Part shown: positions 44,970-61,399 of the stretch, one piece after another
Numbering within the stretch: the first letter of the stretch is position 1
How the letters are laid out: every line of letters starts with the position of its first letter
Origin: Actinomycetota bacterium
GTDB lineage: Bacteria; Actinomycetota; UBA4738; JACQTL01
Direction: 5' to 3'
NCBI GenBank assembly: GCA_046263085.1
Contig: JBHELK010000101.1
Coordinates: 2,011-66,010, forward strand
DNA: 64,000 nt
Made by a program: the position numbers and the translations under genes
Notes under the pieces: generated by a model
What the model saw: only the letters and a program-made list of their open reading frames with translations
Databases searched by the model: none
What the model was told of the DNA's origin: nothing

Positions 44970-44990
44970 TGCCCGCGCCCGCCGGCCGGG

Positions 44991-47105
44991 CTAGGCGCTC
45001 GCCTGTTCGTCGGCCGCGGCGAGCAGGCGGGGGATCGCGCTCTCGTAAGCGTCGCGGGCCTCGGCCACCGTGGCCTCGAAGAGGGTGTCGAAGACCATGC
45101 GGGGGCCGCCGGTCTCCCCGAGCCGTGCGAAGGGGACATGGCGCGCCATCGCGAGCTCCTCGAGGCGCTCCGCGTTCTCCGGGGCCGCCGAGACCACCGC
45201 TCGCGACGCGGACTCGCTGAACAGCGCGACGTGCCAGGGCAGGTCGCCGGCGAGCGAGATCGCGAACCCGGTATCACCGGCGATGGCGGACTCCGCGAGG
45301 GTGACGGCGAGGCCGCCGTCGGAGCAGTCGTGCGCCGACTCCAGCAGATCCGCCGCGGCCACCTCGACGAGGAGCTCGAGCAGCGCCTTCTCGGCGTCGA
45401 GGTCGAGCGACGGCGGACGGCCGGAAACAGCGCCCAGCACGGCCTCCGCGAACTCAGACCCGCCGAGCTCGGCAAAAGTTTCACCGAGCAGATAGATCAC
45501 GTCGCCGGGCCGGCGGAACCCGATCCCAACGAGCAGCCGGTAGTCCTCGATGAGACCCAGCATCCCGATGACCGGCGTGGGCCAGATCGCGGACTCGCCG
45601 GACTCGTTGTAGAAGCTGACGTTGCCGCCGGTGACGGGCGTGGCCAGCGCGCGGCACGCGTCGCCCATGCCCCGCACCGCCTCCGCGAACTGCCACATCA
45701 CCTCGGGGCGCTCGGGGTTGCCGAAGTTCAGGCAGTTCGTGACGGCGAGCGGCCGCGCCCCGGTGGCCGCCACGTTGCGGGCGGCCTCGGCCACCGAGTG
45801 CGCCGCCCCGAGATAGGGGTCGAGCACGCCGTAGCGGCCTTTCCCGTCGCTCGACAGCGCCATGGCCTTCAACGTCCCCTCGATGCGGACCACCGCGGCG
45901 TCGCCTCCGGGGCCGGCAACGCTCTGTCCGCCGACGAGCTGGTCGTACTGCTCGTACGCCCACCGCTTGCTCGAAACGTTCGGGGATCCCAGGACCCGGA
46001 AGAACGCATCGGTGGGTGACGAGGTGACCGTCGCGAACGTCGGATCGTCCTCCACGATGTCCGTGACGGTCGGCGGCGGCTGCATGGGCCGGCGGTACGT
46101 GGGTCCCTCGTCGGCGAGCGAGCGCGCCGGCACCTCGGCCACGACCTCGCCATCCGCCTTGACCCGCATCCCGCCACCGGGCACAACCGTGCCGATCACG
46201 GCCGCCTGCAGCAGCCATCGCTCGCAGAGTGCGCGGACCTCCTCCAGCTTCTCGGGGCGCACGATGGCGAGCATCCGTTCCTGCGACTCCGAGGTGAGGA
46301 CCTCGAAGGGCTCCATCCCCTGCTGGCGCAGCGGCACGGCGTCGAGATCGAGCTCTACCCCCACGCCCGCCCGGCTCGCCGACTCGCTCACGGCGCACAC
46401 GAGCCCCGCTCCACCCAGGTCCTGGAGGCCGTCCAGCAGCTCGCGGTCGACGAGCTCGAGGCACCCCTCGATGAGCAGCTTCTCCTCGAAGGGGTCCCCG
46501 ATCTGCACCGACGGCCTGGACTCCTCCGCCCCCTCCTCGATGGTCCGCGAGGCCAGCACCGAGACGCCGCCGATGCCGTCGCGGCCGGTGCGCGACCCGA
46601 TCAACACGAGCAGGTTGCCCTCGCCCTCGGCCCGGCTGCGCATCAGCTTGTCGGCCGCCGTCAGGCCGACGCACATCACGTTCACCGTGGGGTTCGCCGT
46701 GTGGCATTCGGCGAACGCGATCTCACCGCCGACCGTCGGCACGCCGATGCAGTTGCCGTAGCCGCCGATGCCGGCGACGACGCCCTCGAACAGCCAGCGA
46801 TTGCGCGCGTCGGTGAGGGGGCCGAACCGGAGCGGATCGAGCAGGGCCACCGGCCGCGCCCCCATCGACAGGATGTCGCGGACGATCCCTCCCACGCCCG
46901 TCGCCGCACCCTGGTACGGCTCGATCGCGCTGGGATGCGAGTGGGACTCGATCTTGAACACGGCGGCCACGCCGTCGCCGAGGTCGACGACGCCGGCGTC
47001 CTCCCCCGGGCCGACGAGCACCGCATCGCCCTCGGTGGGCAGCGTCTTGAGGTGCACCTTGCTCGATTTGTACGAGCAGTGCTCCGACCACATGGCGGCG
47101 TACAT
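44991..47105 (-). CDS. purL: phosphoribosylformylglycinamidine synthase II (large subunit)
   Basis: AMWSEHCSYKSSK, PGEDAGVVD, two PurM-like repeats. The true 5' end lies upstream of the first ATG at 47105 (see findings). Confidence 0.9.
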   Translation of the reverse strand: MYAAMWSEHCSYKSSKVHLKTLPTEGDAVLVGPGEDAGVVDLGDGVAAVFKIESHSHPSAIEPYQGAATGVGGIVRDILSMGARPVALLDPLRFGPLTDARNRWLFEGVVAGIGGYGNCIGVPTVGGEIAFAECHTANPTVNVMCVGLTAADKLMRSRAEGEGNLLVLIGSRTGRDGIGGVSVLASRTIEEGAEESRPSVQIGDPFEEKLLIEGCLELVDRELLDGLQDLGGAGLVCAVSESASRAGVGVELDLDAVPLRQQGMEPFEVLTSESQERMLAIVRPEKLEEVRALCERWLLQAAVIGTVVPGGGMRVKADGEVVAEVPARSLADEGPTYRRPMQPPPTVTDIVEDDPTFATVTSSPTDAFFRVLGSPNVSSKRWAYEQYDQLVGGQSVAGPGGDAAVVRIEGTLKAMALSSDGKGRYGVLDPYLGAAHSVAEAARNVAATGARPLAVTNCLNFGNPERPEVMWQFAEAVRGMGDACRALATPVTGGNVSFYNESGESAIWPTPVIGMLGLIEDYRLLVGIGFRRPGDVIYLLGETFAELGGSEFAEAVLGAVSGRPPSLDLDAEKALLELLVEVAAADLLESAHDCSDGGLAVTLAESAIAGDTGFAISLAGDLPWHVALFSESASRAVVSAAPENAERLEELAMARHVPFARLGETGGPRMVFDTLFEATVAEARDAYESAIPRLLAAADEQASA

Positions 47106-47205
47106 CGCGAGCTCGGTCCGGTTGGGGTCGCGCCCGAGCGTGTCGCGGATCTGCTGCAGCTCGTCGTCCGTGAGACCGAGCGCCGGTGCAGCGGCTCGTC
47201 CGCGC

Positions 47206-47910
47206 TCACGCGGAAGCGGGCTGCAGCGCGTGCGCCAGCAGGGATCCGAACAGCGGCTGGCCCCCGATGGGGCCGACGTCTGGGTCGACCGCGTGCTCGG
47301 GGTGCGGCATGAGCCCCACCACGTTGCCGCGGTCGTTGCGCAGCCCGGCGATGGCGTCGGTCGCCCCGTTGGGATTGAAGCGCTCGTCGAGCTCCCCGTG
47401 CGGGCCGCAGTACCGGAAGAGGACCAGCCCGTCGTTCTCGATGCGGCGCAGCTCGTCCGGCGTGGCCACGAACTGGCCCTCGCCGTGCTTCACCGGGATC
47501 TCCAGGACGTCCCCGACGGTGCACGTCGTGGTGAGCACCGACGAGCTCGTCTCCACCCGCACCCGGATCGACCGGCAGACGAACCGCAGCGATCGGTTCC
47601 GGATGAGCGCGCCGGGGAGCAGGCCGGCCTCGCACAGGATCTGGAACCCGTTGCAGACGCCGACCACCGGGCCTCCGGCGTCGGCGAACGCGCGGACGGC
47701 GTCCATGACCCGGGCGAAACGAGCGATGGCGCCGGCGCGCAGGTAGTCGCCGTAGGAGAACCCTCCGGGCAGGATCACCGCGTCCACGCCGTGCAGATCG
47801 GGGTCCCCGTGCCAGATCGAAACAGCCTCCCCGCCCATGTACTCGACCGCCCGCAGGGCGTCGCGATCGTCGAGCGAGCCGGGGAAGGTGATCACGCCGA
47901 CCCTGGTCAT
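47206..47910 (-). CDS. purQ: phosphoribosylformylglycinamidine synthase I (glutaminase subunit)
   Basis: Class I glutamine amidotransferase with catalytic Cys (GVCNGFQ) and His (PHPEH). Confidence 0.9.
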   Translation of the reverse strand: MTRVGVITFPGSLDDRDALRAVEYMGGEAVSIWHGDPDLHGVDAVILPGGFSYGDYLRAGAIARFARVMDAVRAFADAGGPVVGVCNGFQILCEAGLLPGALIRNRSLRFVCRSIRVRVETSSSVLTTTCTVGDVLEIPVKHGEGQFVATPDELRRIENDGLVLFRYCGPHGELDERFNPNGATDAIAGLRNDRGNVVGLMPHPEHAVDPDVGPIGGQPLFGSLLAHALQPASA

Positions 47911-48164
47911 GGCACCGCCTCGACCGTCAGGACCGCGTAGTCCTCGATCACGGGATTCGACAGGAGCCTCTGCGCCATCTCCTCGACCTGGGCGCGCGCC
48001 GACCGCTCGTCGGGCGCGTCGATCGTGAGCCGCACGTGCTTGCCCACCCGCACATCGGTCACGTTGGTCCAGCCCATCGTGGGAAGCGAGCCGAGCACGG
48101 CCTTGCCCTGGGGATCGAGGAGCCCATCCTTCAACGAGACGATGACCTCGAACCGGAAGCTCAG
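47907..48164 (-). CDS. purS: phosphoribosylformylglycinamidine synthase PurS subunit
   Basis: SFRFEVIVSLKDGLLDPQGKAV... 85 aa. Only a CTG lies in frame at the purC stop overlap (cTGAgc). Start uncertain. Confidence 0.7.
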   Translation of the reverse strand: MSFRFEVIVSLKDGLLDPQGKAVLGSLPTMGWTNVTDVRVGKHVRLTIDAPDERSARAQVEEMAQRLLSNPVIEDYAVLTVEAVP

Positions 48165-49054
48165 CTCTCGACCCCCATGCGCTGCAGGTACTCCGCGAAC
48201 GGCTCGCCGGTCAGCCGCTCGTACGCCTCGCGGTACCGGGCCAGGGTGTGCTCCACCACGTCCGGGGGAAGGTCGGGCGCGGGCGGCTCGTGATCCCAGC
48301 CGCTCTCGTCCAGCCAGTCTCGCACGTACTGCTTGTCGAACGAGGGCTGCGCGCCGCCCGGCGCGTACTCGTCGGCCGGCCAGAACCTGGACGAGTCGGG
48401 CGTCATGACCTCGTCGATGAGGATGAGCTCGCCGTCGGCGAAGCCGAACTCGAACTTCGTGTCGGCGAGGATGATGCCGCGCTCGCGCGCCACCTCCGCC
48501 CCGCGCTCGTAGATCGTGAGCGTGAGCTCCTCGAGCTTGCGCGCCAGCCCCTCGCCCACGAGCTCCCCGGCCTGCTCGATCGTGATGTTCTCGTCGTGGC
48601 CCTCGGTGGCCTTCGTGGACGGCGTGAAGATCGGCTCCGGCAGCCGATCGGACTCCTGCAGGCCGCCGGGCAGCTCGATCCCACACACGGTTCCGCTGCG
48701 CGTGTACTCCTTCCAGCCGCTTCCGGAGAGGTATCCGCGGGCCACGCATTCGACCATCACGACGTCGGCCCTCTTCACGAGCATGGCCCGGCCGGCGAGC
48801 TCCGGCTCGCGGAAGGCCTCGGGGAAATCGCGATAGTCCGCGGTGATCAGATGGTTGGCGACGAGGTCCTTCGTCTGCTCCAGCCAGAACAGCGTGAGCC
48901 CGGTGAGGACACGTCCCTTGTCGGGGATCGGCGTGGGGATGACCACGTCGAACGCCGAGATGCGGTCGCTGGCCACGAGGACCAGCGAGTCCGGCCCGGC
49001 CTCGTAGATGTCGCGAACCTTGCCGCGCGCGTGGAGCTCTGCCGTCACGCTCAC
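48161..49054 (-). CDS. purC: phosphoribosylaminoimidazole-succinocarboxamide synthase
   Basis: SAICAR synthetase motifs (GKVRDIY, LILIDEVMTPDSSRFW). GTG start at 49054 overlaps the purB stop; the 349-aa ORF N-terminus is junk. Confidence 0.9.
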   Translation of the reverse strand: MSVTAELHARGKVRDIYEAGPDSLVLVASDRISAFDVVIPTPIPDKGRVLTGLTLFWLEQTKDLVANHLITADYRDFPEAFREPELAGRAMLVKRADVVMVECVARGYLSGSGWKEYTRSGTVCGIELPGGLQESDRLPEPIFTPSTKATEGHDENITIEQAGELVGEGLARKLEELTLTIYERGAEVARERGIILADTKFEFGFADGELILIDEVMTPDSSRFWPADEYAPGGAQPSFDKQYVRDWLDESGWDHEPPAPDLPPDVVEHTLARYREAYERLTGEPFAEYLQRMGVES

Positions 49055-50355
49055 TGCGATACCACCTCCAGCTTCTCCAGGCGGTCGAAGACCTGGTCGA
49101 GATGAGCGAGGTGGGAAGTGGGATCGAACAACTCGTCGAGCAGCTCGGGCGAGAGTCCCGGGCCGACGACGGTTGCGATCTCCTCGCGGAACGGTCGGTT
49201 CTCGTCCCATGCCGCAGCTGCGGCCCGCTGGACGATGCGGTAGGCATCCTCACGGCTCATACCGGTGTCGATCAGCGCCAGCAGGACGCCCTGGGAGAAC
49301 GCCAGGCCCCCGCCGTGGTCGAGGTTCTCGCGCATCCGTTCGGGGAACACGCGAAGCCCCTCCACCACCCCGGTGAACAGGTGCAGCATGTAGTCGAGCG
49401 CGATCGTCGAATCGGGCAGGATCACACGCTCCGCGGACGAGTGCGAGATGTCGCGCTCGTGCCACAGCGCCACGTTCTCCAGCGCGGCCTGCAGGTTGCC
49501 GCGCACCACACGGGCCAGACCGCAGACCCGCTCGCAGATCACCGGGTTGCGCTTGTGCGGCATGGCGCTCGAGCCCTTCTGTCCCTCGGCGAACGGCTCC
49601 TCGACCTCCCTGACCTCCGTGCGCGCCAGGTGGCGGATCTCCAGCGCGAACTTGTCGAGCGATGAGGCCGTGATGGCGAGCGCCGACACGAGCTCCGCAT
49701 GGCGGTCGCGCTGCAGGATCTGCGAGGACGCCTCCGCCGGTCGCAGCCCAAGCTTGCCGCACACGTACTCCTCGACCCGCGGGTCGACCTTGGAGTACGT
49801 GCCGACGACGCCGCTGATCTTCCCCACGGCGATGACCTCGCGGGCGCGCCGGAGGCGATCGCGATCGCGGTCCAGCTCGAACGCCCAGAGGGCGAGCTTG
49901 TGGCCGAACGTGGTGGGCTCGGCGTGCACCCCGTGCGTCCTTCCCATCATCACCGTGTCCCGGTGTTCGAACGCCCCGGTGCGCACGACCGCGAGCAGCC
50001 GCTCCACCTTGTCCAGCAGGAGGTCGGCCGAGGTCCGCAGCTGGAGCGCCAGCGCGGTGTCCAGCAGGTCGGACGACGTCATCCCGAAGTGGATCCAACG
50101 GCCGGGCTCCCCCACCGACTCCCCCACCACCTGCACGAAGGCCGCGACATCGTGCTGGGTCGTGCGCTCGATCTCGAGCACGCGATCCACGGTGAACGAG
50201 GCCAGCTCCCTGATGGCGTCGAGATCCGCCGGAGGGATGCGCCCGAGCTCGGCCCACGCCTCGCACGCCAGGACCTCGATCCGGAGCCAGTGCGAGAGCT
50301 TCGCTTCGTCGGACCACACCGCCGACATCTCCGGCAGCGAGTACCGGGGAATCAC
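49051..50355 (-). CDS. purB: adenylosuccinate lyase
   Basis: 434 aa, fumarate lyase signature GSSAMPHKRNP. Confidence 0.9.
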   Translation of the reverse strand: MIPRYSLPEMSAVWSDEAKLSHWLRIEVLACEAWAELGRIPPADLDAIRELASFTVDRVLEIERTTQHDVAAFVQVVGESVGEPGRWIHFGMTSSDLLDTALALQLRTSADLLLDKVERLLAVVRTGAFEHRDTVMMGRTHGVHAEPTTFGHKLALWAFELDRDRDRLRRAREVIAVGKISGVVGTYSKVDPRVEEYVCGKLGLRPAEASSQILQRDRHAELVSALAITASSLDKFALEIRHLARTEVREVEEPFAEGQKGSSAMPHKRNPVICERVCGLARVVRGNLQAALENVALWHERDISHSSAERVILPDSTIALDYMLHLFTGVVEGLRVFPERMRENLDHGGGLAFSQGVLLALIDTGMSREDAYRIVQRAAAAAWDENRPFREEIATVVGPGLSPELLDELFDPTSHLAHLDQVFDRLEKLEVVSQ

Positions 50356-50828
50356 AGCTTCAGGCCCTCGGAGAGGGACTCCTTGAACTCCCGGAGGCGC
50401 TTGCGGAGGTCCTCGTCGGTGCTGGCGATGATCTGGGCGGCGAGGATGGCCGCGTTCACGGCACCGTCGATGGCCACCGTGGCCACGGGCACCCCGCGGG
50501 GCATCTGCACGGTCGAGTAGAGCGCGTCGGCGCCGCCCACGTACTTCGTGCCGACCGGAACGCCGATGACCGGCAGGATGGTTCGCGCGGCGACGGCCCC
50601 GGCGAGGTGGGCGGCCATGCCCGCCCCGCAGATCACCACGCGGATCCCCCGCTCGTCGGCCATGCGCGTGTAGGCGTCGACGGCGTCGGGGTTGCGGTGG
50701 GCCGACATCACCTGCAGCTCGTGCGGGATGCCGAAGCGCTCCAGGATGGCGGTGGCCTGCTCCATCACCGGAAGGTCGGACGCGGATCCCACCAGGATCC
50801 CGACGAGCGGCCTCTGCGTCTCAGCCAA
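50352..50828 (-). CDS. purE: N5-carboxyaminoimidazole ribonucleotide mutase
   Basis: 158 aa, GSASDLP and AGMAAHLAG motifs. Confidence 0.9.
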
Positions 50829-52086
50829 TTTCCGCTCCGATGTCCTTTCGATAGTGCATGCCCCGGAAGGAGATCGCGGATGCGGCCTCGTAGGCCCGCT
50901 TCCTCGCCTCGGGGAGCGACGACCCCAACGCGCTGACCGCGAGCACCCTTCCCCCTGCCGTCACCACTCTACCGTTCCGGAGCGCCGTCCCGGCGTGGAA
51001 CACGAAGGCGTCGTCGTGGGCCGCGGCCTCGTCGAGGCCCTCGATGGGGAACCCGGTCTCGTGCTCACCCGGGTAGCCGCCGGATGCCAGCACCACGGTC
51101 ACGCAGGCCTCCTCCCGCCAGCGGACCCCGTAGTTGGAGAGGTTCCCCTCGACCGTCGCCAGCAGGAGCTCCCCGAGATCGGAGCCGAGCCGGGGCAGGA
51201 TGGCCTGGGTCTCCGGGTCGCCGAGGCGGCAGTTGAACTCGAGCACCTTCGGGCCGTCGGGGGTCACCATGAGGCCGGCGTACAGCACGCCGCGATACCG
51301 GACCCCCTCGTCCGCCATGGCCCCCACCGTCGGCTCGAGCACGTCGCGCACGATCGCATCGCGCAGGCCGTCGTCGATGAACGGCACGGGCGAGTACGCG
51401 CCCATCCCGCCCGTGTTCGGCCCGGTGTCGCCGTCACCGGCGCGCTTGTAGTCCTGCGCGAGCGCCATGGGCAAGACCGTGCGGCCGTCGGTGATGGCGA
51501 TGGCCGACACCTCGCGGCCCTCGAGAAACTCCTCGACCAGCACCCGGGTTCCGGCCTCGCCGAAGGCGCGGTCGACCAGGCTCGCCCGCAGGGCCCGCTC
51601 GGCCGTGTCGAGATCCTCGGCCACGGTGACGCCCTTGCCGGCCGCGAGGCCGTCGGCCTTGATGACGTAGGGGGGCTTCAGCGCATCGAGATACGCGCGG
51701 GCGGGCTCGTATGCCGTGAACGACTCCGAGACCGGCGCCGGGATGCCGGCGCGCACGCAGAGCTGCTTGGCCCACGCCTTCGACCCCTCGATCAGCGCCG
51801 CGGCCCGGTCCGGACCGAACACCCGCAGGCCCCGCATCGACATCTCGTCGACGAGCCCGGCGACGAGTGGCGCCTCCGGCCCGACGACGGTGAGGTCGAT
51901 CGACTCACGCTCGGCGAAGTCGGCAACGCCCTGCACGTCCGCGGCAGCGATGGGCTCGCAGGTGGCCAGCTCGGCGATGCCCGCGTTCCCAGGCGCGGCG
52001 AAGAGCTTCTCGACCGTGGGGTTGTCGGCGAGCTTCGAGGCGATCGCGTGCTCGCGCCCGCCCTGGCCCACGATCAGCACGCGCAC
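50821..52086 (-). CDS. purD: phosphoribosylamine-glycine ligase
   Basis: MRVLIVGQGGREHA N-terminus, ATP-grasp. Confidence 0.9.
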   Translation of the reverse strand: MRVLIVGQGGREHAIASKLADNPTVEKLFAAPGNAGIAELATCEPIAAADVQGVADFAERESIDLTVVGPEAPLVAGLVDEMSMRGLRVFGPDRAAALIEGSKAWAKQLCVRAGIPAPVSESFTAYEPARAYLDALKPPYVIKADGLAAGKGVTVAEDLDTAERALRASLVDRAFGEAGTRVLVEEFLEGREVSAIAITDGRTVLPMALAQDYKRAGDGDTGPNTGGMGAYSPVPFIDDGLRDAIVRDVLEPTVGAMADEGVRYRGVLYAGLMVTPDGPKVLEFNCRLGDPETQAILPRLGSDLGELLLATVEGNLSNYGVRWREEACVTVVLASGGYPGEHETGFPIEGLDEAAAHDDAFVFHAGTALRNGRVVTAGGRVLAVSALGSSLPEARKRAYEAASAISFRGMHYRKDIGAEIG

Positions 52087-53361
52087 CTAGGCCACCCTCA
52101 GGCTCTGCTCGCGGGCCGGGCCCACCGAGACCAGGGCCACGGGCACCCCGGCCAGCTCGGCGATGCGCTCCACGTAGGTCCGGGCGGCCGCGGGCAGCTC
52201 GGCGAACGACGTCACGTCGGACAGGTCCTCCTGCCACCCCTCGAGCTCCTCCCAGACGGGCTCGGCCCGGTGGAAGATCGACTGGTGGGGCGGGAAGTCG
52301 TCGAAGGTGTCGGCGCCGTCCCGGTACGCCACGCACACCCGGATCGGCGAGAGCCCGGACAGCACGTCGAGCTTCGTCAGGAACACCTCGGTGAAGCCGT
52401 TCACGCGCGCCGCGTACCGCAGCAGCACCGCGTCGAACCACCCGCACCGCCTGGGACGGCCGGTGGTGGTGCCGTACTCGTTGCCGCGGGTGAAGAGGTG
52501 CTCGCCCACCTCACCCGTGTCCTCCGTGGGGAAGGGGCCCGCGCCGACGCGGGTGACGTAGGCCTTCGTGATGCCGATGACCGTGTCCACCTCGCGCGGC
52601 CCGAGGCCGGAGCCGGTGAGCGCGCCGCCCGCCACGGGGTTCGACGAGGTGACGAACGGATACGTGCCGTGATCCAGGTCGAGGAGCGTTCCCTGTGCCC
52701 CCTCGAGCAGCGCCCGCTTGCCCTCGCGCATCGCGTCGTGCAGGAGCTTCGCGGTGTCGGCCACGTGCTTCCCGAGCCGGTCTCGGTGTCCCATGAAGTC
52801 CTGGACGATCTGCTCGGGCTGCAGCGGCAGCCGGTTGTAGAGCTTGGTGAGGATGAGGTTCTTCTCCTTCAGCACGACGTCGAGCTTCTCGCGGAAGATC
52901 TTCTCGTCGAACAGGTCCTGCACGCGCAGGCCGATGCGGGCCGCCTTGTCCGCGTACGCGGGCCCGATCCCCCGTTTCGTGGTCCCCAGGGCGTACTTGC
53001 CGAGGAACCGCTGCGTCACCTTCTCCAGCTCGAGGTGGTACGGCATGATGAGGTGCGCGTTGCCGGAGATGAGCAGCCGCGATGTGTCGATGCCCTGCGC
53101 GTCGAGGGCGTCCATCTCCTCGATCAGGACGCCGAGGTCGATGACCACGCCGTCCCCGATCATCGACGTGACGTGGTCGTAGAGGATGCCCGAGGGGATC
53201 AGGTGGAGCTTGAGGAGCCGCCCCCCGGCGACCACCGTGTGCCCGGCGTTGTTGCCGCCCTGGTAGCGGACGCAGAAATCCATCCGGTCCGCCAGGTAGT
53301 CGGTGGCCTTGCCCTTCCCCTCGTCACCCCACTGCGCTCCGACGACGATCGTGACCGGCAC
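52087..53361 (-). CDS. purA: adenylosuccinate synthetase
   Basis: VVGAQWGDEGKGK P-loop, GNNAGHT, GTTKRGIGP. GTG start near 53361; the ATG at 53412 would give an unusually long N-terminus. Confidence 0.9.
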   Translation of the reverse strand: MPVTIVVGAQWGDEGKGKATDYLADRMDFCVRYQGGNNAGHTVVAGGRLLKLHLIPSGILYDHVTSMIGDGVVIDLGVLIEEMDALDAQGIDTSRLLISGNAHLIMPYHLELEKVTQRFLGKYALGTTKRGIGPAYADKAARIGLRVQDLFDEKIFREKLDVVLKEKNLILTKLYNRLPLQPEQIVQDFMGHRDRLGKHVADTAKLLHDAMREGKRALLEGAQGTLLDLDHGTYPFVTSSNPVAGGALTGSGLGPREVDTVIGITKAYVTRVGAGPFPTEDTGEVGEHLFTRGNEYGTTTGRPRRCGWFDAVLLRYAARVNGFTEVFLTKLDVLSGLSPIRVCVAYRDGADTFDDFPPHQSIFHRAEPVWEELEGWQEDLSDVTSFAELPAAARTYVERIAELAGVPVALVSVGPAREQSLRVA

Positions 53362-53399
53362 GGGCCTGATTCTATGGGCCGGGCAGCTACCATCTGTGC

Positions 53400-54050
53400 A
53401 TGGCGGATCCACCCTCGGCCCGCACCCAGGTCAAGCGCCTGCCCGAGCGCGGCGTCTACGACCGCGCCGCGATCGACGCCATCCTGGACGAGGCGCTCTT
53501 CTGCCACCTGGCCTGGATCCAGGACGGGTCGCCGCGAGTGATCCCCACGATCCACGCCCGGGCCGGCGACGAGCTGTACGTGCACGGCTCGCAGGCCAGC
53601 CGCACGCTCCGAGGCGCGCGCGACGGGGCCGAGATCTGCGTGGTCGTCACGCTGCTCGACGGCCTGGTGCTGGCCCGCTCGGCCTTCCACCACTCCATGA
53701 ACTATCGGTCGGTGGTGGTCTACGGGCGCGGCCGCGAGATCACGGATCCCGACGAGAAGTGGCAGGCACAGCGAGCCGTCGTCGAACACGTCGTCCCCGG
53801 CCGGTCGGCCGACGTCCGCATGCCGAACGAGAACGAGCTTCGCCAGACCATGATCCTCTCGCTGCCGCTCGACGAGGCCTCCGCGAAGGTGCGCGCGGGT
53901 CCCCCGAAGGACGACGAAGAGGACTACGACCTGCCGATCTGGGCCGGCGTGCTCCCGATGACGATGCAGCCGGGCGAGCTGATGGCGGACCCGAGGCTGC
54001 CTGAGGACCTCGAGCCTCCTGCGAACGTCGCGCGGTACCGAAGGTTCTGA
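53400..54050 (+). CDS. pyridoxamine 5'-phosphate oxidase-like FMN-binding (split-barrel) family protein
   Basis: DRAAIDAILDEALFCHLAWIQDGSPRVIPT matches the PNPOx-like split-barrel family. Confidence 0.6.
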   Translation: MADPPSARTQVKRLPERGVYDRAAIDAILDEALFCHLAWIQDGSPRVIPTIHARAGDELYVHGSQASRTLRGARDGAEICVVVTLLDGLVLARSAFHHSMNYRSVVVYGRGREITDPDEKWQAQRAVVEHVVPGRSADVRMPNENELRQTMILSLPLDEASAKVRAGPPKDDEEDYDLPIWAGVLPMTMQPGELMADPRLPEDLEPPANVARYRRF

Positions 54051-54059
54051 CCGGCCGGG

Positions 54060-55454
54060 TCAGCACACCGTGAGCGGCGTCCCGTCCGGGGCGGGGACTC
54101 CGGGCCCCAGGTAGACCCCCGGCTGCGTGAGGCTGCATCCGTCGCTCTGGCGGGCGAAGGCGATCTCCGTGCCGGTCCCCCGGTCCCGCGCGTAGACCAC
54201 CATGAGGGCACCCGTATCGTGCGCGACCTGCATGTCGAAGAAGTCGAGCAGCTTCCGGTCGTCCCCGCTGCATCCGGTGCCGTTCGTGCAGATGTTGCCG
54301 GTGTGGAAGCTCGACTGGGCGACCGCCGGCGTGAACGTCGGTGCGGCATCGAGCGCATCGAGCGTGGAGGACACGTCGACGTCCCAGATGGCGCCGGGCA
54401 CGTTGTTCGGATCGCCCACCGTGCTCGTGCCGAACCAGGAGACCGCCACGCGGCCGGCAGCCCCGGCCATCACGTTGGGGAAGATCGCCGTACCGCTGAT
54501 CCCCCGGCTCACGGCGACCGGCGCCGACCACGTGGCGCCCTTGTCGCTCGAGTGCGAGAGGTACAGCGTGAAGCCGTTCCCCTTGTCCTCGGACCATGCG
54601 GTGTAGACGTTGCCGGCGGAATCCGTGGCCATCACCGGGAAGTCGTTGCCGGTACCGCCCGGGCCCGAGCCCGTGACATGGGTGGTGGTGAAGGACAGAC
54701 CTCCGTCCCCGCTGATGGCGACCGCGACGCCACTGGGACCGTCCGGATAGGGGAAGTACAGGGTGCCGTCCGTCGGGTCGATGGCCGGACGCCCCGGCGA
54801 CACGCCGCCGGGCACGGTCGCGAAGGTGGTCTGCGGGAAGAAGCGCGCGCCGATCGGGCTGTTCGCGAGATCGGCCTTCACCACCTCCAGGCCCTTGAAG
54901 CCGTCGTACCAGCCGTAGAGCGCGTCCTCCATCGGCGAGTACAGGAACCATTCCCGGTCGGAGGCCGGGTCGTGGGAAGCGGGCGACCAGTCCCAGTGCT
55001 GCCCGCCGTCGGAGGAGATGTAGATGGAGTCGCTCCCGAGCCAGAGCTCGCCCTCGTAGACGGTCCCGCGCTTGTCGACGGCGAGCTCCGTGTCACCGCC
55101 GGTGAAGGCGTCGGCGTACGACGGCGAGCCGGTGGCTGCAGGGAAGATCGGCTTGGCCCAAGTCGTGCCGTCGTCGGTCGACTTCCACACGGGGCTGGAC
55201 TTGTTGTTGCAGCAGATGAGGAGCGTGCGTGGGGTGCTGACCCAGAGCGTCCCGTCGAGCGGCGAGACGACGAGCGACGGCTCCCCGCAGGGGTTGTAGC
55301 ACGTGGCCGAGGTGCTCCCGGTCGAGCCGGACTGAGGCAGGACGACGGGTGCCGAGAAGGTGAACGGATGCACCGTGACGGTCGCTCCAGCGCGCCCGGG
55401 CACGAGCACCGCCAGCAGGATCAACGCCACCATCGCACCGAATGGCTTCCTCAT
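54060..55454 (-). CDS. secreted BNR/sialidase-fold protein
   Basis: Signal peptide. STDDGTTW, SSDGGQHW, SGDGGLSF, SSDKGATW Asp-box motifs. Confidence 0.6.
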   Translation of the reverse strand: MRKPFGAMVALILLAVLVPGRAGATVTVHPFTFSAPVVLPQSGSTGSTSATCYNPCGEPSLVVSPLDGTLWVSTPRTLLICCNNKSSPVWKSTDDGTTWAKPIFPAATGSPSYADAFTGGDTELAVDKRGTVYEGELWLGSDSIYISSDGGQHWDWSPASHDPASDREWFLYSPMEDALYGWYDGFKGLEVVKADLANSPIGARFFPQTTFATVPGGVSPGRPAIDPTDGTLYFPYPDGPSGVAVAISGDGGLSFTTTHVTGSGPGGTGNDFPVMATDSAGNVYTAWSEDKGNGFTLYLSHSSDKGATWSAPVAVSRGISGTAIFPNVMAGAAGRVAVSWFGTSTVGDPNNVPGAIWDVDVSSTLDALDAAPTFTPAVAQSSFHTGNICTNGTGCSGDDRKLLDFFDMQVAHDTGALMVVYARDRGTGTEIAFARQSDGCSLTQPGVYLGPGVPAPDGTPLTVC

Positions 55455-55512
55455 CCCCAGAAATCCGTACCCGCGGCGAGGAGAGGGAAAACGAATCCGC
55501 CGGCAGACTCGC

Positions 55513-55944
55513 CTATCGCACGATCAGCACGGAGCAGGGGGCGTGCCGACTGACTCGCTCAGCCGCCCCCCCGGGAAGGAGTCCCCAGACGCCCGATCGA
55601 CCGACGTGGCCGATCACGATGAGATCGACGTCGCCCGCCTTGGCCGCCTCGATGATCGAGCTCGCCGTGTGTCCGGCCGCCACTTCGGTGGACAGCCGCA
55701 CGCCGGCTTCACCCGCCAGGCGCTGTGCTTCGGTGAGCGCGGTTGCGGCCTCGGATCGCTCCACCTCCAGCTCCTCCTTCACCTCACCGACGGTCGCGCC
55801 GTAGTGCGGCAGGTGTGCCTCGACGGCGACCGCGTGAAGATCCGCGCCGGAGACTCTCGCGATCTGCAACGCGACTTCGAGAGCTCGCTGCGCACCGGCC
55901 GACCCGTCGAACGCCACGAGGATCTTCGAGAACGGCCGATCCAT
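55513..55944 (-). CDS. universal stress protein (UspA family)
   Basis: ILVAFDGS ... DLIVIGHVGRSG ... ATP-binding G-x2-G-x9-G-S pattern. Start MDRPFSK at 55944; the ORF extends to 55971. Confidence 0.8.
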   Translation of the reverse strand: MDRPFSKILVAFDGSAGAQRALEVALQIARVSGADLHAVAVEAHLPHYGATVGEVKEELEVERSEAATALTEAQRLAGEAGVRLSTEVAAGHTASSIIEAAKAGDVDLIVIGHVGRSGVWGLLPGGAAERVSRHAPCSVLIVR

Positions 55945-56013
55945 GGAGCGATTATCGACGACGGGCCGCATGGAGGCTTTGACGTTCGACTCCGCCGTTC
56001 CTAGACTGTGACT

Positions 56014-56102
56014 CGGCGATGGAGCGCCGCCCGGGTCCCTCGGACCCGAACAGCCCTACAACCCGGCTAATGGCTCCTGGCGAACAGCCAGGGGCTTTTT
56101 TG
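56014..56102 (+). ncRNA. candidate fluoride riboswitch (crcB motif) with intrinsic-terminator expression platform
   Basis: GGCGAUGGAGCGCCGCC: P1 GGCG/CGCC with loop GGAGC complementary to downstream GCUCC (pseudoknot). Linker AACA. Short P3 GCC..GGC. Conserved UAAUGGCUCCU. This matches the T. petrophila aptamer GGGCGAUGAGGCCCGCCC...CUGAUGGCCUCU with covarying pseudoknot. Then hairpin CCUGGCgaacaGCCAGG plus U6, immediately before the SD of the antiporter gene. Confidence 0.55.
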
Positions 56103-56118
56103 TTGCCTGGAGGACGAG

Positions 56119-57357
56119 TTGGATCCACACATCCTGTACACGGCGATGCTCCTCGGAGTCCTCGTGCTCGTGGCGAGCATGGCCTCCGTCGAGCTCGCCC
56201 TCTCCATCGCCATCATCGAGATCGCCCTGGGGGTGTTCGCCGGCAACGTCTTGGATCTCCACACGTCCGAGTGGCTGGACTTCCTCGCCGGATTCGGCTC
56301 GATCGTCCTTACGTTCCTGGCAGGCGCCGAGGTCGACCCCGACCTGATGCGAGCCGAGCTCAAGGAGAGCGCCCTCATCGGCGGCGTGTCGTTCATCGTC
56401 CCGTTCGCCGCGACCCTCGGTGTCACCTATTTCCTGATCGGCTGGGATCTCAAGGCCTCCGAGATCGCGGCCGCCGCGATGTCGACGACCTCGCTCGCCG
56501 TCGTGTACGCGGTCCTCGTGGAGACCGGCCTCACGGAAACGGAGTTCGGGAAGCTCATCATGGCCGCGACGTTCTTCACCGACTTCGGCACGGCGGCCGC
56601 ATTGACGATCCTGTTCATCAAGCCGACGATCTGGATGATTCCCTTCGTTGGGGTCTCCATCGCGATCATCGTCGCGATGCGAGTCCTGGAGCCGTGGTTC
56701 TTCAAACGGTACGGCAACCGGGTGATCGAGCCCGAGCTGAAAGGCGCATTCGCGGCGCTCCTCATCCTGATGTATTTCGGGGCGAAGGCCCAGAGCCACG
56801 CCGTGCTGCCCGCGTTCCTCCTCGGTCTCGCGCTCGCGAAGACCTTCGAGCGGCACCGCGTCGAACAACAACGGTTCCGGGTCGTCGCGTTCGCGTTCCT
56901 CACGCCGTTCTTCTTCCTGAAGAGCGGGATGAACGTCTCCCTGAGCGCCGTGTGGGCCAACATCGGCCTGCTGGCGGTGTTCCTCGGCGTCAAGCTCGCC
57001 GGGAAGTTCGTGGGCGTGTATCCGCTCGCGCGGCGATACGTACCGGAGCGGCGCAACGCCAACTACCTGACGCTGTTGATGAGCACCGGGTTGACGTTCG
57101 GGACGATCTCTTCCCTCTACGGGCTTCAAGCTGGGATCATCAACGAGGCGCAGTTCTCAGTCCTCGTTACCGTGGTCGTGCTGACCGCGATCGTCCCGAC
57201 GGCGATCGCGCAGCGTTTCTTCCATCCCGCCGTGACGACGATCGGTCCGCCTCCCGAAGGCTCAGATCGGTCTGAGGCAGCCACGTTTCCCGAATCGGCC
57301 GCCGGATACTCGGGAAAGAGCACCGACCCATCAGAGGAACGAGCACCCGAGACGTGA
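56119..57357 (+). CDS. cation/H+ antiporter (CPA2 / Kef-NapA type Na+/H+ exchanger family)
   Basis: 412 aa, 11-12 TM segments, Na_H_Exchanger-like profile. TTG start 5 nt after the GGAGGA SD. Confidence 0.8.
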   Translation: MDPHILYTAMLLGVLVLVASMASVELALSIAIIEIALGVFAGNVLDLHTSEWLDFLAGFGSIVLTFLAGAEVDPDLMRAELKESALIGGVSFIVPFAATLGVTYFLIGWDLKASEIAAAAMSTTSLAVVYAVLVETGLTETEFGKLIMAATFFTDFGTAAALTILFIKPTIWMIPFVGVSIAIIVAMRVLEPWFFKRYGNRVIEPELKGAFAALLILMYFGAKAQSHAVLPAFLLGLALAKTFERHRVEQQRFRVVAFAFLTPFFFLKSGMNVSLSAVWANIGLLAVFLGVKLAGKFVGVYPLARRYVPERRNANYLTLLMSTGLTFGTISSLYGLQAGIINEAQFSVLVTVVVLTAIVPTAIAQRFFHPAVTTIGPPPEGSDRSEAATFPESAAGYSGKSTDPSEERAPET

Positions 57358-57366
57358 CCGGGAAGG

Positions 57367-58563
57367 TCACGTCCGAGGGTGTGCCCCGGCGGCGACTCGG
57401 ATGAAGAAGGGGATCGCGAGGGCCTGCGCCGCCATCGAGAACGCGACGGCGCCGCCGATCGAGAACGTGTAGAGGCCTCCGATCGCGGCGCTGCCGAGGA
57501 ACCAGGAGATCCCGTACCCCGCGGTGAACAGGCCGTAGGCCGAGGCTCGCCGCTGGACCGGCACCATCGGCGCGACGGCCGCGGGCACGATCGACTCGTG
57601 GACGCCCATCCCCAGTCCCCACAGGGAGGCCCCGACGAGCGCAGGCCAGAACCCACCCAGGAAGACGAGCGGTGCGAACAGGGCGGAGACGATGGTCAGC
57701 GGGATGAGGATGCGGATGCCCGTGCGATCGAACAGGCGCCCGAACAGGAGCGATCCGATCCCGCTCACGCCCATCGCGACCGCGTAAAAGATCGGGATCA
57801 TCGCGGCGGACACCGTCGAGGTGCGGGCGAAATGGAACGCGATGATCGGGTAGTCGGCGAAGCCCGCCCCGACGAGCGCCGCGCCCGCGAGATACACCCA
57901 GAAGATCCGGGGGAGGCCTTCGGCCTGCACGTCCGGAGGCTCGGTCTCCATCTCCTCAGGCCGCGGGTAGAGCAGACGGGCCACCACCAGGACGGCGAGC
58001 GTGATCGCGGCGGGAACCGCGAGGACCGCAAAGGCGAGACGGAACCCGCCGTGCCGCAGGGCGAGCACACCGCCGATCGCCAGCGGTCCGAGCAGGGCGC
58101 CGAACTGATCGAGGGCCTCGTGCAGCCCGAACGCCCATCCGTATCCCCCGAGCTGCTTGCCCGCGTGCGACAGCATCACGTCGCGTGGCGGGTTCCGGGT
58201 GGCCTTCCCCACGCGCTCCAGGACGATCAGCAGCGCGGCGACCTGCCAGCTCCCGGCCAGTGCCAGGAGCGGCACGACCGACATCTGCAGCACGTACCCG
58301 GCGATCGTGATCGGCCAGAACTGCCTCGTCCGATCGGCCAGCCGACCGGAGACCACACGGAGCCCGTAGCCGAGGAGCTCGCCGAACCCGCTGACCGCCC
58401 CGACCGTGAACGCTCCCGCCCCGAGCGCCGCGAGGAACGGACCGACGATCGACCTCGACCCCTCGTACGTGAGGTCGGCGAAGAGGCTCATGACTCCCAC
58501 GAGGAGCACGAACCTCAGCGCGGTCGATCTCGCCGAGGCCTCTCGGCGCGACGACGAGATCAC
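57367..58563 (-). CDS. MFS transporter
   Basis: 398 aa, 12 TM segments, MFS motif GRLADRTR. Confidence 0.8.
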   Translation of the reverse strand: MISSSRREASARSTALRFVLLVGVMSLFADLTYEGSRSIVGPFLAALGAGAFTVGAVSGFGELLGYGLRVVSGRLADRTRQFWPITIAGYVLQMSVVPLLALAGSWQVAALLIVLERVGKATRNPPRDVMLSHAGKQLGGYGWAFGLHEALDQFGALLGPLAIGGVLALRHGGFRLAFAVLAVPAAITLAVLVVARLLYPRPEEMETEPPDVQAEGLPRIFWVYLAGAALVGAGFADYPIIAFHFARTSTVSAAMIPIFYAVAMGVSGIGSLLFGRLFDRTGIRILIPLTIVSALFAPLVFLGGFWPALVGASLWGLGMGVHESIVPAAVAPMVPVQRRASAYGLFTAGYGISWFLGSAAIGGLYTFSIGGAVAFSMAAQALAIPFFIRVAAGAHPRT

Positions 58564-59096
58564 GGCCTACCGATGCGCCGGAAGAATCCGAGCGTCCGCT
58601 CCCGACGGCTCTCGTTCGACTCGAAGTGCGGGGGCTCGTAGGAATCGACGGCGAGCGTCTTCGTCCCGTCGACCGGGGGCTCGACCGAATCCGGATCGAC
58701 ACCGCGCGCTCGGAGCTCGCCCTCGAGCCGGCGGAGCTCGGCGCGCAGCGCCTTGGCCTCCTCCTTCAGGGGCGGAACCAGGTCCTTGTTCAGCTCGAGG
58801 TGGAGCTCGTAGGTGCGTTGCTCGTCGCGCTCGGCCCTCGCGAATCGCTCGCGGCCGGTGACGAACGTGAAGCGGTGGGCCGCGACGATGCCGGCGCGAT
58901 GCGCGAAGTGCCTCCGCAGTCGCGCCAACCGCTCCGGCGCGGGCAGGTCCGCGGGGAACGTCTCATCGATCGGTTGCGCGAGGATCCGCCGGGCCCTCTC
59001 GACGGCCTCGTTGACGAGCGCGCGGTCGTCCTCGTCGGGATACGCGCGCCGCAGCCGTTCCCAGTCCACCACGAGGATCCTCACCCGTCCGCTCAC
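58560..59096 (-). CDS. hypothetical charged coiled-coil protein (dynamin operon partner 2)
   Basis: GTG start at 59096 overlaps the upstream stop (GTGA). No known domain. 4-nt overlap with the MFS gene. Confidence 0.4.
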   Translation of the reverse strand: MSGRVRILVVDWERLRRAYPDEDDRALVNEAVERARRILAQPIDETFPADLPAPERLARLRRHFAHRAGIVAAHRFTFVTGRERFARAERDEQRTYELHLELNKDLVPPLKEEAKALRAELRRLEGELRARGVDPDSVEPPVDGTKTLAVDSYEPPHFESNESRRERTLGFFRRIGRP

Positions 59097-59518
59097 GCGC
59101 GGTCCAGTCGCTCGCGCAGGGCGTCGATCCTCGACCGGTAGTCCTCGATGTCCTCGCGGAGGCGCGGGATCATCCACTCACGGGTCACGGCGATCTCCCG
59201 TCCCCGCATCCGGGTCACCAGTTCCTGCTGCTCCGCCTGCCGGCCCCTGTCGTAGAGCCAGTACCTGAGGGTCGGCTCGATCGCGGTGAAACGGCCGAGC
59301 ACGCCGAGCAACGCGTCGAAACGCTCCTCGTCGGTCGAGGGCCGTTGCATCGCCGCCTCGGCGAGCATGTCGAACAGGCCCATCGACACGAGGAACCGCA
59401 TCTCGGCTTCATCCGGCGGGAGGGCGGATGGGCCGACCGCAAGCTCGACCACGTCGTCCGAGACGTGCTCGTAGTCGAGGTCGGCGTCGAGTCCGGCGAA
59501 CGGGTCCTCCCGGCTCAC
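59093..59518 (-). CDS. hypothetical acidic protein (dynamin operon partner 1)
   Basis: 141 aa. 4-nt overlap with the dynamin stop. No known domain. Confidence 0.4.
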   Translation of the reverse strand: MSREDPFAGLDADLDYEHVSDDVVELAVGPSALPPDEAEMRFLVSMGLFDMLAEAAMQRPSTDEERFDALLGVLGRFTAIEPTLRYWLYDRGRQAEQQELVTRMRGREIAVTREWMIPRLREDIEDYRSRIDALRERLDRA

Positions 59519-61296
59519 GCGGTCCCGCTCTTGACAAGTGGCGCAGCGCGCTCGGCGATCTGTCCGAGCCGCGACTCGATCTCCAGCAGTCGCGTTCGCT
59601 GTTCGGCCAATCGCGTCTTCGCGATGTCGACGCGTTCGGCGCTCGCGGCGCGATCAACCATGGCCCGCTCGACGCCGTGACGGAGGCTCTCGATGGTCGC
59701 TGCCAGACGGCGGTCGAGGGTCCGTTGCAAGGAGACGCGGCTGCGATCGAGGCGCTGCTGAAAGTCCCAACGCAGCCGGCCGGCGTGCTTGTCCAGGAGG
59801 TCGGGGATGCGCGTTCGCACCTCCCTGAGGGCAAGTTTCCGGGCCATACCGGCCGGGAGGTATCGCCGAACGTCGGGAAGCAGGCTCTCGAGCATCGTCG
59901 GCACCTCGCGCAACGAGTACGTGAAACGCGACTCCGGCGTGATGCCCCGGAGCGGGGAGGAGATCTCGAGGCGGAGACCGAAGACCTCCCCGGTCAGGCG
60001 AACGGTCCGCTGCACGAGCTCGTTCGTCTGGTCCACGAAGCGCTCCGTGGCCTCGTCGAAGCGCTCGGCGATCCGGACTTCCTCCTCGGTGCGCCACCGA
60101 TCGACGGAGCGCCGGACGGACCGACCGATCCGGTCCTCGAGCTGCGCCGTCGCCTCTCGCAGATCCTCGGTCGACCCGAGCTCCCGATCTATCTCCTCGA
60201 CCACCGCGGCGGCGTCGCGATCGCGGAACGACCGGAGGTCCGCCTCGACCGCGGCGAGCAGCTTGCGCAGCTCCCCGTCGAGGAGGACGCGCGTGTCCTC
60301 GCGGGATCGCTCGGCTTCGGCGAAGATGCGCTCCATCTCCCGTGTCTTCTCCGCGAGCTCACGCTCCGGGATGCCGAGCGTGCGCTCCTCCATCTCCAGC
60401 GAATTCCTCTCGTCGGCGAGCAGCTTCCCGGCCTGTCCCGCTACCGAGAGCACGATCGCGGCCCCCTTCTCCCGCAGGAGGAATTCCCTGAAGTCACGCT
60501 CGAATCGCGGGAACCCGCTGGCCGCGAGCCGTTCGGTGTCGCGGACGGCCTTCGCCCGAAGGGCCTCGCGTGCGGATACCGGATAGACCGCCGTCTGCCG
60601 CCCGAGCGCTTCCTCCAGCACCCCCTCGGTGAAGGCGACGGCCTCGCCTCGCTCCGCTTCCGACAGATAGTCCGCCTTGTTCAGGACGAAGAACATGCGC
60701 GCCGACGCGTCGCGGACCTCCTCTAGGAACGATCGCTCTCCCTCCGAGATGGGGGGGTCGGCGGACGTGAGGAACAGCGCGGCATCGGCCTCGGGCAGGA
60801 ACGCCCGCGCGACGTCGGTGTTGTGCCGGTACACGCTGCCGACGCCGGGCGTGTCGACGAGGTGGACGCCGTCGCGCAGATCCTCTGCCGGGTAGTGGAG
60901 CACGGCGCGATCGACACGCAGCTCGTTGCCCGGGTTCTCCCGCTCGGTCACGTAGCGGGACAGGGAGTCGACGACGATGTCCTCGGTCCGGCCGTCCTGA
61001 TAGACCACCTCCGCCCGCACCTCCGGGCCGTGCGCCACCACCGTCACGACCGAGGTCAGGGGAACGACCGCCGCCGGCAGGATCTCCGTGCCGAGCAGCG
61101 CGTTCACGAACGTGGTCTTCCCTCGCTTGAACTCGCCGACGACGACCACGTTGAACCGTTCGTCGACGAGCTTATTGTCGAGCTCGCGCAGGGATTCCGC
61201 GACCGACGAGCTCCCCCGGCTCTCGGCGATGGCCGCGGACGCGCGCAGCGTGTCGAGCAACTCCGCCTTCAGATCCGCGTACGTGGTCTCGGCCAT
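59515..61296 (-). CDS. bacterial dynamin-like GTPase
   Basis: P-loop GEFKRGKTTFVNALLG, DTPG, NKAD G-motifs, long coiled-coil stalk. Start MAETTYADLK at 61296 with a GAGGTAGGGG SD; the ORF extends to 61374. Confidence 0.75.
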   Translation of the reverse strand: MAETTYADLKAELLDTLRASAAIAESRGSSSVAESLRELDNKLVDERFNVVVVGEFKRGKTTFVNALLGTEILPAAVVPLTSVVTVVAHGPEVRAEVVYQDGRTEDIVVDSLSRYVTERENPGNELRVDRAVLHYPAEDLRDGVHLVDTPGVGSVYRHNTDVARAFLPEADAALFLTSADPPISEGERSFLEEVRDASARMFFVLNKADYLSEAERGEAVAFTEGVLEEALGRQTAVYPVSAREALRAKAVRDTERLAASGFPRFERDFREFLLREKGAAIVLSVAGQAGKLLADERNSLEMEERTLGIPERELAEKTREMERIFAEAERSREDTRVLLDGELRKLLAAVEADLRSFRDRDAAAVVEEIDRELGSTEDLREATAQLEDRIGRSVRRSVDRWRTEEEVRIAERFDEATERFVDQTNELVQRTVRLTGEVFGLRLEISSPLRGITPESRFTYSLREVPTMLESLLPDVRRYLPAGMARKLALREVRTRIPDLLDKHAGRLRWDFQQRLDRSRVSLQRTLDRRLAATIESLRHGVERAMVDRAASAERVDIAKTRLAEQRTRLLEIESRLGQIAERAAPLVKSGTA

Positions 61297-61399
61297 GGAG
61301 CTACCCCTACCTCGATCGATGGTAGGAGCTATCAGCCCGGGAGGGCGTTCGGCGAGCTCCATCGCCTGATCCATCCCGAGTATAGGTGGTCGGACGGAG

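Follow-up and report, generated by a model that had tools for sequence, protein, structure and literature searches.

The 64,000-nucleotide stretch of Actinomycetota DNA analyzed here (contig JBHELK010000101.1, positions 2,011 to 66,010; referred to below as the window) contains, on its forward strand at positions 56015-56081, a candidate fluoride aptamer of the crcB (RF01734) class in the leader of a gene for a CPA2-type cation/H+ antiporter. Judging from its sequence, we consider it very likely that the element is a functional riboswitch of this class, with fluoride turning on transcription of the antiporter gene. An earlier note on this DNA had proposed such a transcriptional ON switch, and the match to the RF01734 model, the conservation of the ligand site and comparative genomics all support the proposal.

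All structural and ligand-site hallmarks of the class are present in the leader, the elements of which are listed below.

55979-56007 (+), sigma-70-like promoter, TTGACG, 17-nucleotide spacer, TAGACT (consensus scan)
56015-56081 (+), candidate fluoride (crcB, RF01734) aptamer
56015-56031 (+), P1 hairpin, enclosing the 9-nucleotide loop AUGGAGCGC that contains A6-U7-G8 and GGAGC
56015-56018 (+), 5' strand of P1, GGCG, paired with CGCC at 56028-56031 in the Rfam alignment
56021-56025 (+), 5' strand of the pseudoknot, GGAGC, the exact complement of GCUCC at 56073-56077
56032-56048 (+), inserted hairpin CGGGUCC-CUC-GGACCCG, 7 base pairs, 17 nucleotides, outside the Rfam consensus
56049-56052 (+), A-rich linker AACA, aligned to the consensus AAC(C)
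56053-56055 and 56065-56067 (+), P2 (named P3 in the earlier note), GCC/GGC, 3 base pairs with the 9-nucleotide loop CUACAACCC
56068-56081 (+), 3' tail UAAUGGCUCCUGGC, holding U38, A40, U41, G42, GCUCC (56073-56077) and U48
56072-56096 (+), intrinsic terminator GGCUCCUGGC-GAACA-GCCAGGGGCU, with T6 at 56096-56101 (terminator scan)
56109-56113 (+), Shine-Dalgarno sequence GGAGG
56119-56121 (+), TTG start codon, where homologues have ATG or GTG followed by the same M-D-P-H N-terminus
56119-57357 (+), CPA2-type cation/H+ antiporter gene, 412 amino acids, NapA-like (PF00999, E = 1.5e-40)

The loop of P1 begins with A-U-G, as the class requires, and the key positions A56019, U56020, G56021, U56068, A56070, U56071, G56072 and U56078, which are A6, U7, G8, U38, A40, U41, G42 and U48 in the numbering of the Thermotoga petrophila aptamer, are all retained. 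The exact complementarity between the P1 loop and the downstream GCUCC, on which the original proposal was built, is indeed found and gives a pseudoknot of five Watson-Crick pairs; the AACA linker and the short GCC/GGC helix are likewise where they had been described. The proposed P1 stem GGCG/CGCC also exists, with two adjustments. Its start had been placed one base early, and a 3' strand at CGCC 56025-56028 would bury the pseudoknot strand, so that the best partner is the CGCC at 56028-56031 given by the Rfam alignment.

In its overall design the element thus resembles the characterized members of the class, such as the Bacillus cereus crcB and T. petrophila switches: it shares with them the P1 loop AUGG..., the H-type pseudoknot to a 3' ...AUGNNUCCU tail, the AAC linker, the short P2, the conserved A6, U7, G8, U38, A40, U41, G42 and U48, and the ON logic in which the 5' arm of the terminator is the 3' strand of the pseudoknot. 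It differs from them by the 17-nucleotide hairpin that separates P1 from the linker, by a P1 loop of nine rather than eight nucleotides, by a P2 of three base pairs, and by a tail that continues past the pseudoknot with UGG where theirs has UAC.

A search with RF01734, which the earlier note had suggested as a check, gave a split result. In a permissive local scan of 231 nucleotides, the leader matched the model over all of its positions (1-64 of 64) with 27.6 bits and E = 5.4e-6; scaled arithmetically to 64 kb, this corresponds to E ~1.5e-3. The match is thus significant locally, but its score lies below the Rfam gathering score of 34 bits. The Rfam alignment treats the hairpin as a 14-nucleotide insertion, and the shortfall corresponds to that insertion state; the inserted hairpin is the main cause of the sub-threshold score. 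No second family scored near RF01734 in the permissive scan of the leader. A model derived from orthologous leaders also matched the copy in the window (E = 0.0012 in a search of 588 kb).

The arrangement of the expression signals is that of a transcriptional switch. The promoter predicts a transcription start at approximately 56013-56015, that is, at the first base of P1, and the same -35 hexamer TTGACG with a -10 hexamer TAGACT, TACACT or TATACT lies at equal distance in four homologous loci (L081, L082, L083 and L089; L numbers are our labels for loci). The terminator consists of a 10-base-pair stem with seven GC pairs, a 5-nucleotide loop and TTTTTT, and 56072-56101 is the only terminator-like site that the scan found within 55400-57800. 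As had been proposed, the 3' half of the aptamer overlaps this terminator and its U6 tract: the 5' arm of the terminator, 56072-56081, is G42-C51 of the aptamer. Because this arm comprises the 3' strand of the pseudoknot together with U48, terminator and pseudoknot are mutually exclusive. The terminator hairpin alone has a folding energy of -19.4 kcal/mol and is also present in the minimum free energy fold, which combines P1, the inserted hairpin, P2 and the terminator (-43.4 kcal/mol), whereas the pseudoknot duplex contributes approximately -7 to -10 kcal/mol.

In the switches of B. cereus and T. petrophila, the aptamer forms with or without ligand, and fluoride locks the A40-U48 linchpin and so blocks strand invasion by the terminator (PMC11077080); the U41A mutation abolishes the response to ligand in B. 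cereus (PMC11077080). The crcB motif was originally described as a terminator-overlapping ON switch (PMC2864571). Since the terminator in the window overlaps exactly G42-C51, which is the classic design (PMC2864571, PMC11077080), the same ON logic would fit here. RNA synthesis would begin near 56014 at the sigma-70-like promoter, and the nascent RNA would fold P1, the peripheral hairpin and P2, with the P1-loop GGAGC joining GCUCC in the pseudoknot. Fluoride, held through Mg2+ at A6, U7 and G8 and at the backbone of U41 and G42, would lock the pseudoknot and the A40-U48 linchpin; 56072-56081 would then be kept from 56087-56096, RNA polymerase would read through and the antiporter would be produced. 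Without fluoride, the -19 kcal/mol terminator and its U6 tract would stop transcription ahead of the Shine-Dalgarno sequence.

The strongest evidence for a riboswitch comes from the orthologues of the antiporter gene. We fetched 80 genomic loci encoding relatives of the antiporter and searched their leaders with a covariance model; further close homologues (in the range L081-L095) were obtained by exact-protein look-up, and a single-protein scan of metagenome contigs returned only five distant loci. In a tblastn tally over the fetched DNA and the window, a fluoride aptamer lies within 300 nucleotides upstream of 81 of the 95 antiporter copies, and seven further copies have one 300-5000 nucleotides upstream on the same strand. 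Among 98 aligned aptamers, the helices P1, P2 and pseudoknot are 98.6% paired and display 226 double-sided changes, a level reached by none of 500 shuffles; controls in which the strands were slid are 42-54% paired. This count was limited to columns that align reliably, and the inserted hairpin was judged sequence by sequence, by folding against shuffles. P1 covaries at its first pair (GC, CG or AU) and at its third pair (CG, GC or UA) across 97 distinct aptamers, P2 covaries strongly throughout the family, and the pseudoknot is 99.3% paired family-wide with double-sided changes at three of its six pairs. The linker ends with the four bases AACC in 63 of 95 aptamers, whereas the subgroup to which the window copy belongs has AACA, AACG or GAAC there. 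The tally of upstream aptamers and their pairing and covariation place this antiporter family among the most consistent clients of fluoride riboswitches.

Seven distinct aptamers in this collection (L016, L030, L037, L039, L040, L051 and L062/L076), all upstream of the antiporter, carry G in place of A6, and exactly these carry C in place of U38, giving the motif GUGAGG ... C(A/G)AUGG. The joint exchange suggests that A6 and U38 covary as a long-range tertiary pair.

The aptamer in the window belongs to a subgroup of 12 leaders, all of which carry a hairpin of differing sequence between P1 and the linker. The nearest homologues with the same variant (L081-L083, L089, L090, L092, L094 and L095) encode antiporters with 56-84% protein identity. 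Six of them (L081, L082, L083, L089, L090 and L092; 70-84% identity) have the 9-nucleotide P1 loop AUGGAGC(G/A)C of the window copy and share with it a hairpin of the form GGGUnn...nnACCC, a short linker, a 3-base-pair P2, the tail U(G/A)AUGGCUCCUGG and the terminator CUCCUGGCG...CGCCAGGGGCC followed by a run of U; L094 and L095 (72-73% identity), L008, L025 and L074 (Streptomyces prunicolor) follow the same plan with an 8-nucleotide loop. The eight key positions A6, U7, G8, U38, A40, U41, G42 and U48 are invariant in all 12 members. More generally, the invariant columns fall within the -10 hexamer, aptamer core and terminator stem, and the tops of the hairpins and the loops of P2 and the terminator vary.

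Where stems do change, the changes are compensated. P1 is GGGUG/CACCC in L090, L094 and L095 for GGGCG/CGCCC; the inserted hairpin is GGGUUC/GAACCC in L082 compared with GGGUCC/GGACCC in the window, with further examples in L025 (GGGGCG/CGCCCC) and L074 (a 9-base-pair stem); and the terminator stem is compensated in L083, L092, L094, L095 and L074, the last of which has CUGAC/GUCAG compared with CUGGC/GCCAG in the window. The subgroup scores between 24.8 and 40.4 bits with the Rfam model, and three members (L095, L025 and L090) exceed 34 bits, which places the window copy on a continuum with accepted members of the class. On these grounds we infer that the ligand of the hairpin-bearing subgroup is fluoride.

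The inserted hairpin itself had been described as an extra 7-base-pair element and as atypical. The hairpin is present, folding at -11.5 kcal/mol with z = -3.8 (none of 300 shuffles was as stable); these shuffles were mononucleotide, and by the same measure five of nine hairpins outside the subgroup were not significant at the 5% level. It is not atypical, however. Insertion of a hairpin at this point, between P1 and the AAC linker, is seen in 21 of 96 aptamers, among them six with fully canonical cores (L009, L043, L046, L052, L061 and L065) and two in the leaders of other genes (L007 and L018); we found no description of a P1-linker hairpin in the open-access text searched. By this distribution the hairpin is a recurrent optional element. 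Projected onto the published fold it should lie at the base of P1, near the 5' end and peripheral to the ligand pocket; in our model it would be an optional decoration away from the ligand site.

Several observations weigh against a functional fluoride riboswitch of the established type. In a default Rfam scan of the window the site goes unreported (27.6 bits against 34), and our own covariance model gives it only 18.1 bits; that model was built from 28 insert-free leaders and misaligns insert-bearing aptamers (the register of L095 and the P2 columns), the helices of which were parsed by a script with curated rules. The pseudoknot has only five base pairs, and the extra loop nucleotide G26 must bulge to allow the C27-G42 pair. 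P2 has only three base pairs in the window, as in most of its closest relatives. Position 49 is G in the subgroup rather than A, and the pseudoknot pair 11-44, which is G-C in 88 canonical aptamers, is a non-Watson-Crick U-U, A-C or C-C combination in L008, L025, L074, L094 (909-973) and L095. Moreover, the ligand-site and long-range roles of A6, U7, G8, U38 and G42 are partly what we presume from the T. petrophila structure. The roles of the A40-U48 linchpin and of U41 were taken from other representatives (PMC11077080).

These irregularities could mean that the hairpin, the 9-nucleotide loop and the irregular pseudoknot have changed the ligand or the threshold of the response compared with a canonical copy. 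The hairpin, G49 and either the bulged 9-nucleotide loop or the 11-44 mismatch are conserved across the 12 leaders, and a canonical 42.5-bit aptamer with a translational expression platform occurs in the same window, so that two designs coexist in one genome. We nevertheless consider such a change in response quite unlikely: every nucleotide known to act in the Mg2+/F- cluster or in long-range pairs is unchanged, the same orthologue stands under canonical aptamers in sister lineages, the hairpin also sits on canonical cores (L046, L052, L061, L065, L043 and L009), and three members of the subgroup score above the Rfam gathering score. Less likely still is that the element is a decayed descendant of a fluoride riboswitch that no longer responds and acts as a constitutive partial terminator or attenuator. 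Sub-threshold scores, a short P2 and an imperfect pseudoknot are what such a relic would show; yet the core, the pseudoknot strands and the terminator are invariant or compensated while the neighboring loops diverge, which is the signature of purifying selection, and a constitutive -19 kcal/mol terminator would silence a conserved gene. Chance resemblance of an ordinary GC-rich 5' untranslated region with a hairpin and a terminator has a negligible probability and is effectively refuted by the comparative data, for although GC-rich leaders fold easily and the whole-leader fold is barely more stable than its shuffles (z = -1.66), the covariance-model match has E = 5.4e-6, the site is the exact position of the canonical aptamers in orthologues, and the element is conserved in at least eight homologous leaders. 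A fluoride-responsive ON switch ahead of the antiporter gene thus remains by far the preferred reading.

The regulated gene encodes a protein that matches PF00999 (Na_H_Exchanger) with 139.6 bits against a cut-off of 26.2; its score with the CPA2 model TIGR00932, 94.5 bits, is under the cut-off of 238. Its clade is tight (60-84% identity), with members in Actinomycetota, Chloroflexota, Rokubacteria/Methylomirabilota and other groups; no biochemical characterization of this clade was found in the literature searched. The closest solved structure is that of NapA (4BWZ/5BZ3; E = 1.9e-10). Like Thermus thermophilus NapA (4BWZ/5BZ2/5BZ3), to which it aligns over residues 22-362, the protein is of the same length class and has no soluble domain; the T-S motif of transmembrane helix 4 aligns, as does the lysine of transmembrane helix 10, which corresponds to K296 and is invariant in the clade. 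Unlike NapA, with which overall identity is low, it lacks the Asp-Asp motif of transmembrane helix 5: this aligns to T154-D155, a pair that does not change across 20 clade members. Given the replacement of Asp-Asp by an invariant Thr154-Asp155, the protein may transport a different cation, or work with a different stoichiometry, from NapA.

The description of the antiporter as CPA2/Kef-like therefore needs to be divided. Assignment to CPA2 stands, with PF00999 and NapA as the closest matches. A Kef-type K+ efflux identity we rejected: Pfam shows no second domain in the 412-residue protein, and hence no C-terminal KTN/RCK regulatory domain, and the KefB and KefC models of NCBIfam give 32-35 bits (E = 1e-8 to 1e-9) against cut-offs of 752-804. 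KefB and KefC share the CPA2 superfamily with the window protein but carry the KTN/RCK domain and comprise ~600-620 residues, and "Kef-like" is only a naming habit, as in the JGI labels "Kef-type ... KefB" for many members of the clade. A second suggestion, that the protein might export fluoride, did not stand as the likeliest reading: with Asp155 and K296 of the cation site retained, fluoride export by this protein is unlikely. Most likely the antiporter would exchange Na+ or K+ for H+ and, if the published view applies, this would offset the acidification and the loss of proton-motive force caused by the influx of hydrogen fluoride.

Nor is the pairing of a fluoride riboswitch with an antiporter, rather than with CrcB or EriC, unusual. 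Na+/H+ antiporters are reported to be the next commonest riboswitch-associated class after the exporters (PMC11139923, summarizing Baker et al. 2012), and in the published view they counter acidification driven by hydrogen fluoride (PMC11139923); "K+ transport" genes were linked to the motif already in 2010 by Weinberg (PMC2864571). As in the riboswitch-associated antiporter modules described, the PF00999 transporter of the window directly follows the aptamer, and a universal stress protein (Usp) gene is often part of the module. The earlier note had also named Usp genes as associates of the riboswitch. In our loci an aptamer lies 300-5000 nucleotides upstream, on the same strand, of 22 of 35 Usp copies, mostly with the Usp gene directly after the antiporter gene. 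In Enterobacter, a riboswitch-controlled uspA responds to fluoride (PMC5533749).

The predicted divergent Usp neighbor was confirmed in the window.

55513-55971 (-), universal stress protein (Usp) gene (PF00582, E = 1e-28)

The same divergent position upstream of the antiporter gene is found in L081, L082, L092, L094 and L095. The Usp gene of the window is thus linked to the module but is not under the riboswitch, and it appears to have moved to the divergent upstream position in the lineage of the window. With Usp in this position, its promoter region must overlap the riboswitch DNA. Apart from the Usp gene being divergent and not co-transcribed in this lineage, nothing essential differs from the known antiporter modules.

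Downstream of the antiporter gene, and converging on it, lies an operon preceded by a second aptamer.

61316-61375 (-), canonical fluoride aptamer, 42.5 bits in the default Rfam scan
ATG at 61296 (-), dynamin-like GTPase gene (PF00350), starting 20 nucleotides downstream of the canonical aptamer
57367-61296 (-), GTPase operon with genes for the GTPase, a 141-residue protein, a 205-residue protein and an MFS transporter
57367-58563 (-), MFS transporter gene at the end of the operon

The link between aptamer and GTPase recurs in nine independent loci (including L024, L067, L087, L092 and L094), among them all three of the homologues that were chosen solely for the similarity of their protein (43-55% identity; among L096-L103). 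The conserved operon comprises genes for the GTPase, proteins of ~140 and ~175 residues, His_Phos_1, DUF6062 and an MFS transporter. From these occurrences the dynamin-like GTPase operon appears to be consistently under fluoride riboswitch control; we found no mention of dynamin and fluoride riboswitches together in the searchable literature. The GTPase leader (61285-61380, minus strand) is without a U tract; its CUCCUACC can pair with GGUAGGGG, which is the likely Shine-Dalgarno sequence, and a second AGCUCC abutting the AUG of the GTPase gene can pair with the P1-loop strand. The lack of a U tract, the pairing of the Shine-Dalgarno sequence and the second AGCUCC suggest that control of this leader would be translational rather than transcriptional, unlike that of the antiporter switch.

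Related arrangements occur elsewhere. In L100 the order is aptamer, Na_H_Exchanger, DUF190 and GTPase, with enolase adjoining. The MFS family of the GTPase operon stands directly behind an aptamer in L015 (3627-3675, minus strand) and L018 (1080-1144, plus strand), and in L081 and L082 a member comes after the antiporter gene. The window also has a gene for a Tat-signal phosphoesterase (PF04185; 61400-62803, minus strand), which lies upstream of the canonical switch and ends 25 nucleotides before its aptamer (61375). The literature discusses phosphatases as part of fluoride responses (PMC11139923). Further aptamers directly precede genes other than the antiporter in L012 (2779-2828, minus strand), L069 (1075-1125, plus strand), L044 (2797-2844, minus strand) and L007 (492-559, plus strand); the genes that follow encode a MutS2-like ATPase, Cys-rich DUF6062-like proteins and a 252-residue membrane protein. 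MutS_V genes adjoin the antiporter gene in L081 and L092.

None of the 49 open reading frames called in the window matches CrcB (PF02537) or CLC (PF00654), where a few stretches have no credible open reading frame and the calls without a Pfam match in four stretches may be mistaken (4755-7975, 17082-18509, 26713-27684 and 35132-35971). Any fluoride exporter genes of this genome would lie outside the window. The rest of the window contains a cluster of three tRNA genes at 13744-14010 (+) and, just upstream of the fluoride island, a purine biosynthesis cluster at 37553-53412 with AIR synthase-type, amidotransferase, FGAM synthase-type, adenylosuccinate lyase, AIR carboxylase, GAR synthetase and adenylosuccinate synthetase domains. 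Large secreted BNR/Sortilin-Vps10/beta-propeller proteins are encoded at 2381-3868 (+), 27615-31898 (-), 41221-44969 (+) and 54060-55454 (-).

Taken together, the element is most likely a further antiporter-linked fluoride riboswitch with a recurrent optional hairpin, and its novelty is low, since Na+/H+ antiporters have already been described as the next commonest class linked to this riboswitch after the exporters. It provides one more case of the strongest known association of the fluoride riboswitch with a gene other than an exporter. Owing to the optional hairpin, a conserved actinobacterial subgroup of the class is missed when the Rfam gathering score is applied, and the fluoride regulons of such genomes are consequently under-annotated. 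The riboswitch-led CPA2 clade with its invariant Thr-Asp also offers a defined target for the study of cation/proton exchange in fluoride tolerance, and the link to the dynamin-like GTPase is possibly more important than the antiporter switch itself. A bolder and rather improbable view is that the hairpin-bearing aptamers with a 9-nucleotide loop in this lineage of Actinomycetota form a distinct structural subclass, the response of which (threshold, kinetics or even ligand) differs from that of the canonical copy that the genome also carries. If so, the window would contain a two-tier fluoride island, with a transcriptional variant switch on the Thr-Asp CPA2 antiporter as the first tier and a translational canonical switch on the dynamin-like GTPase/DUF6062/MFS operon as the second, and membrane remodeling would be an unrecognized arm of the fluoride response.

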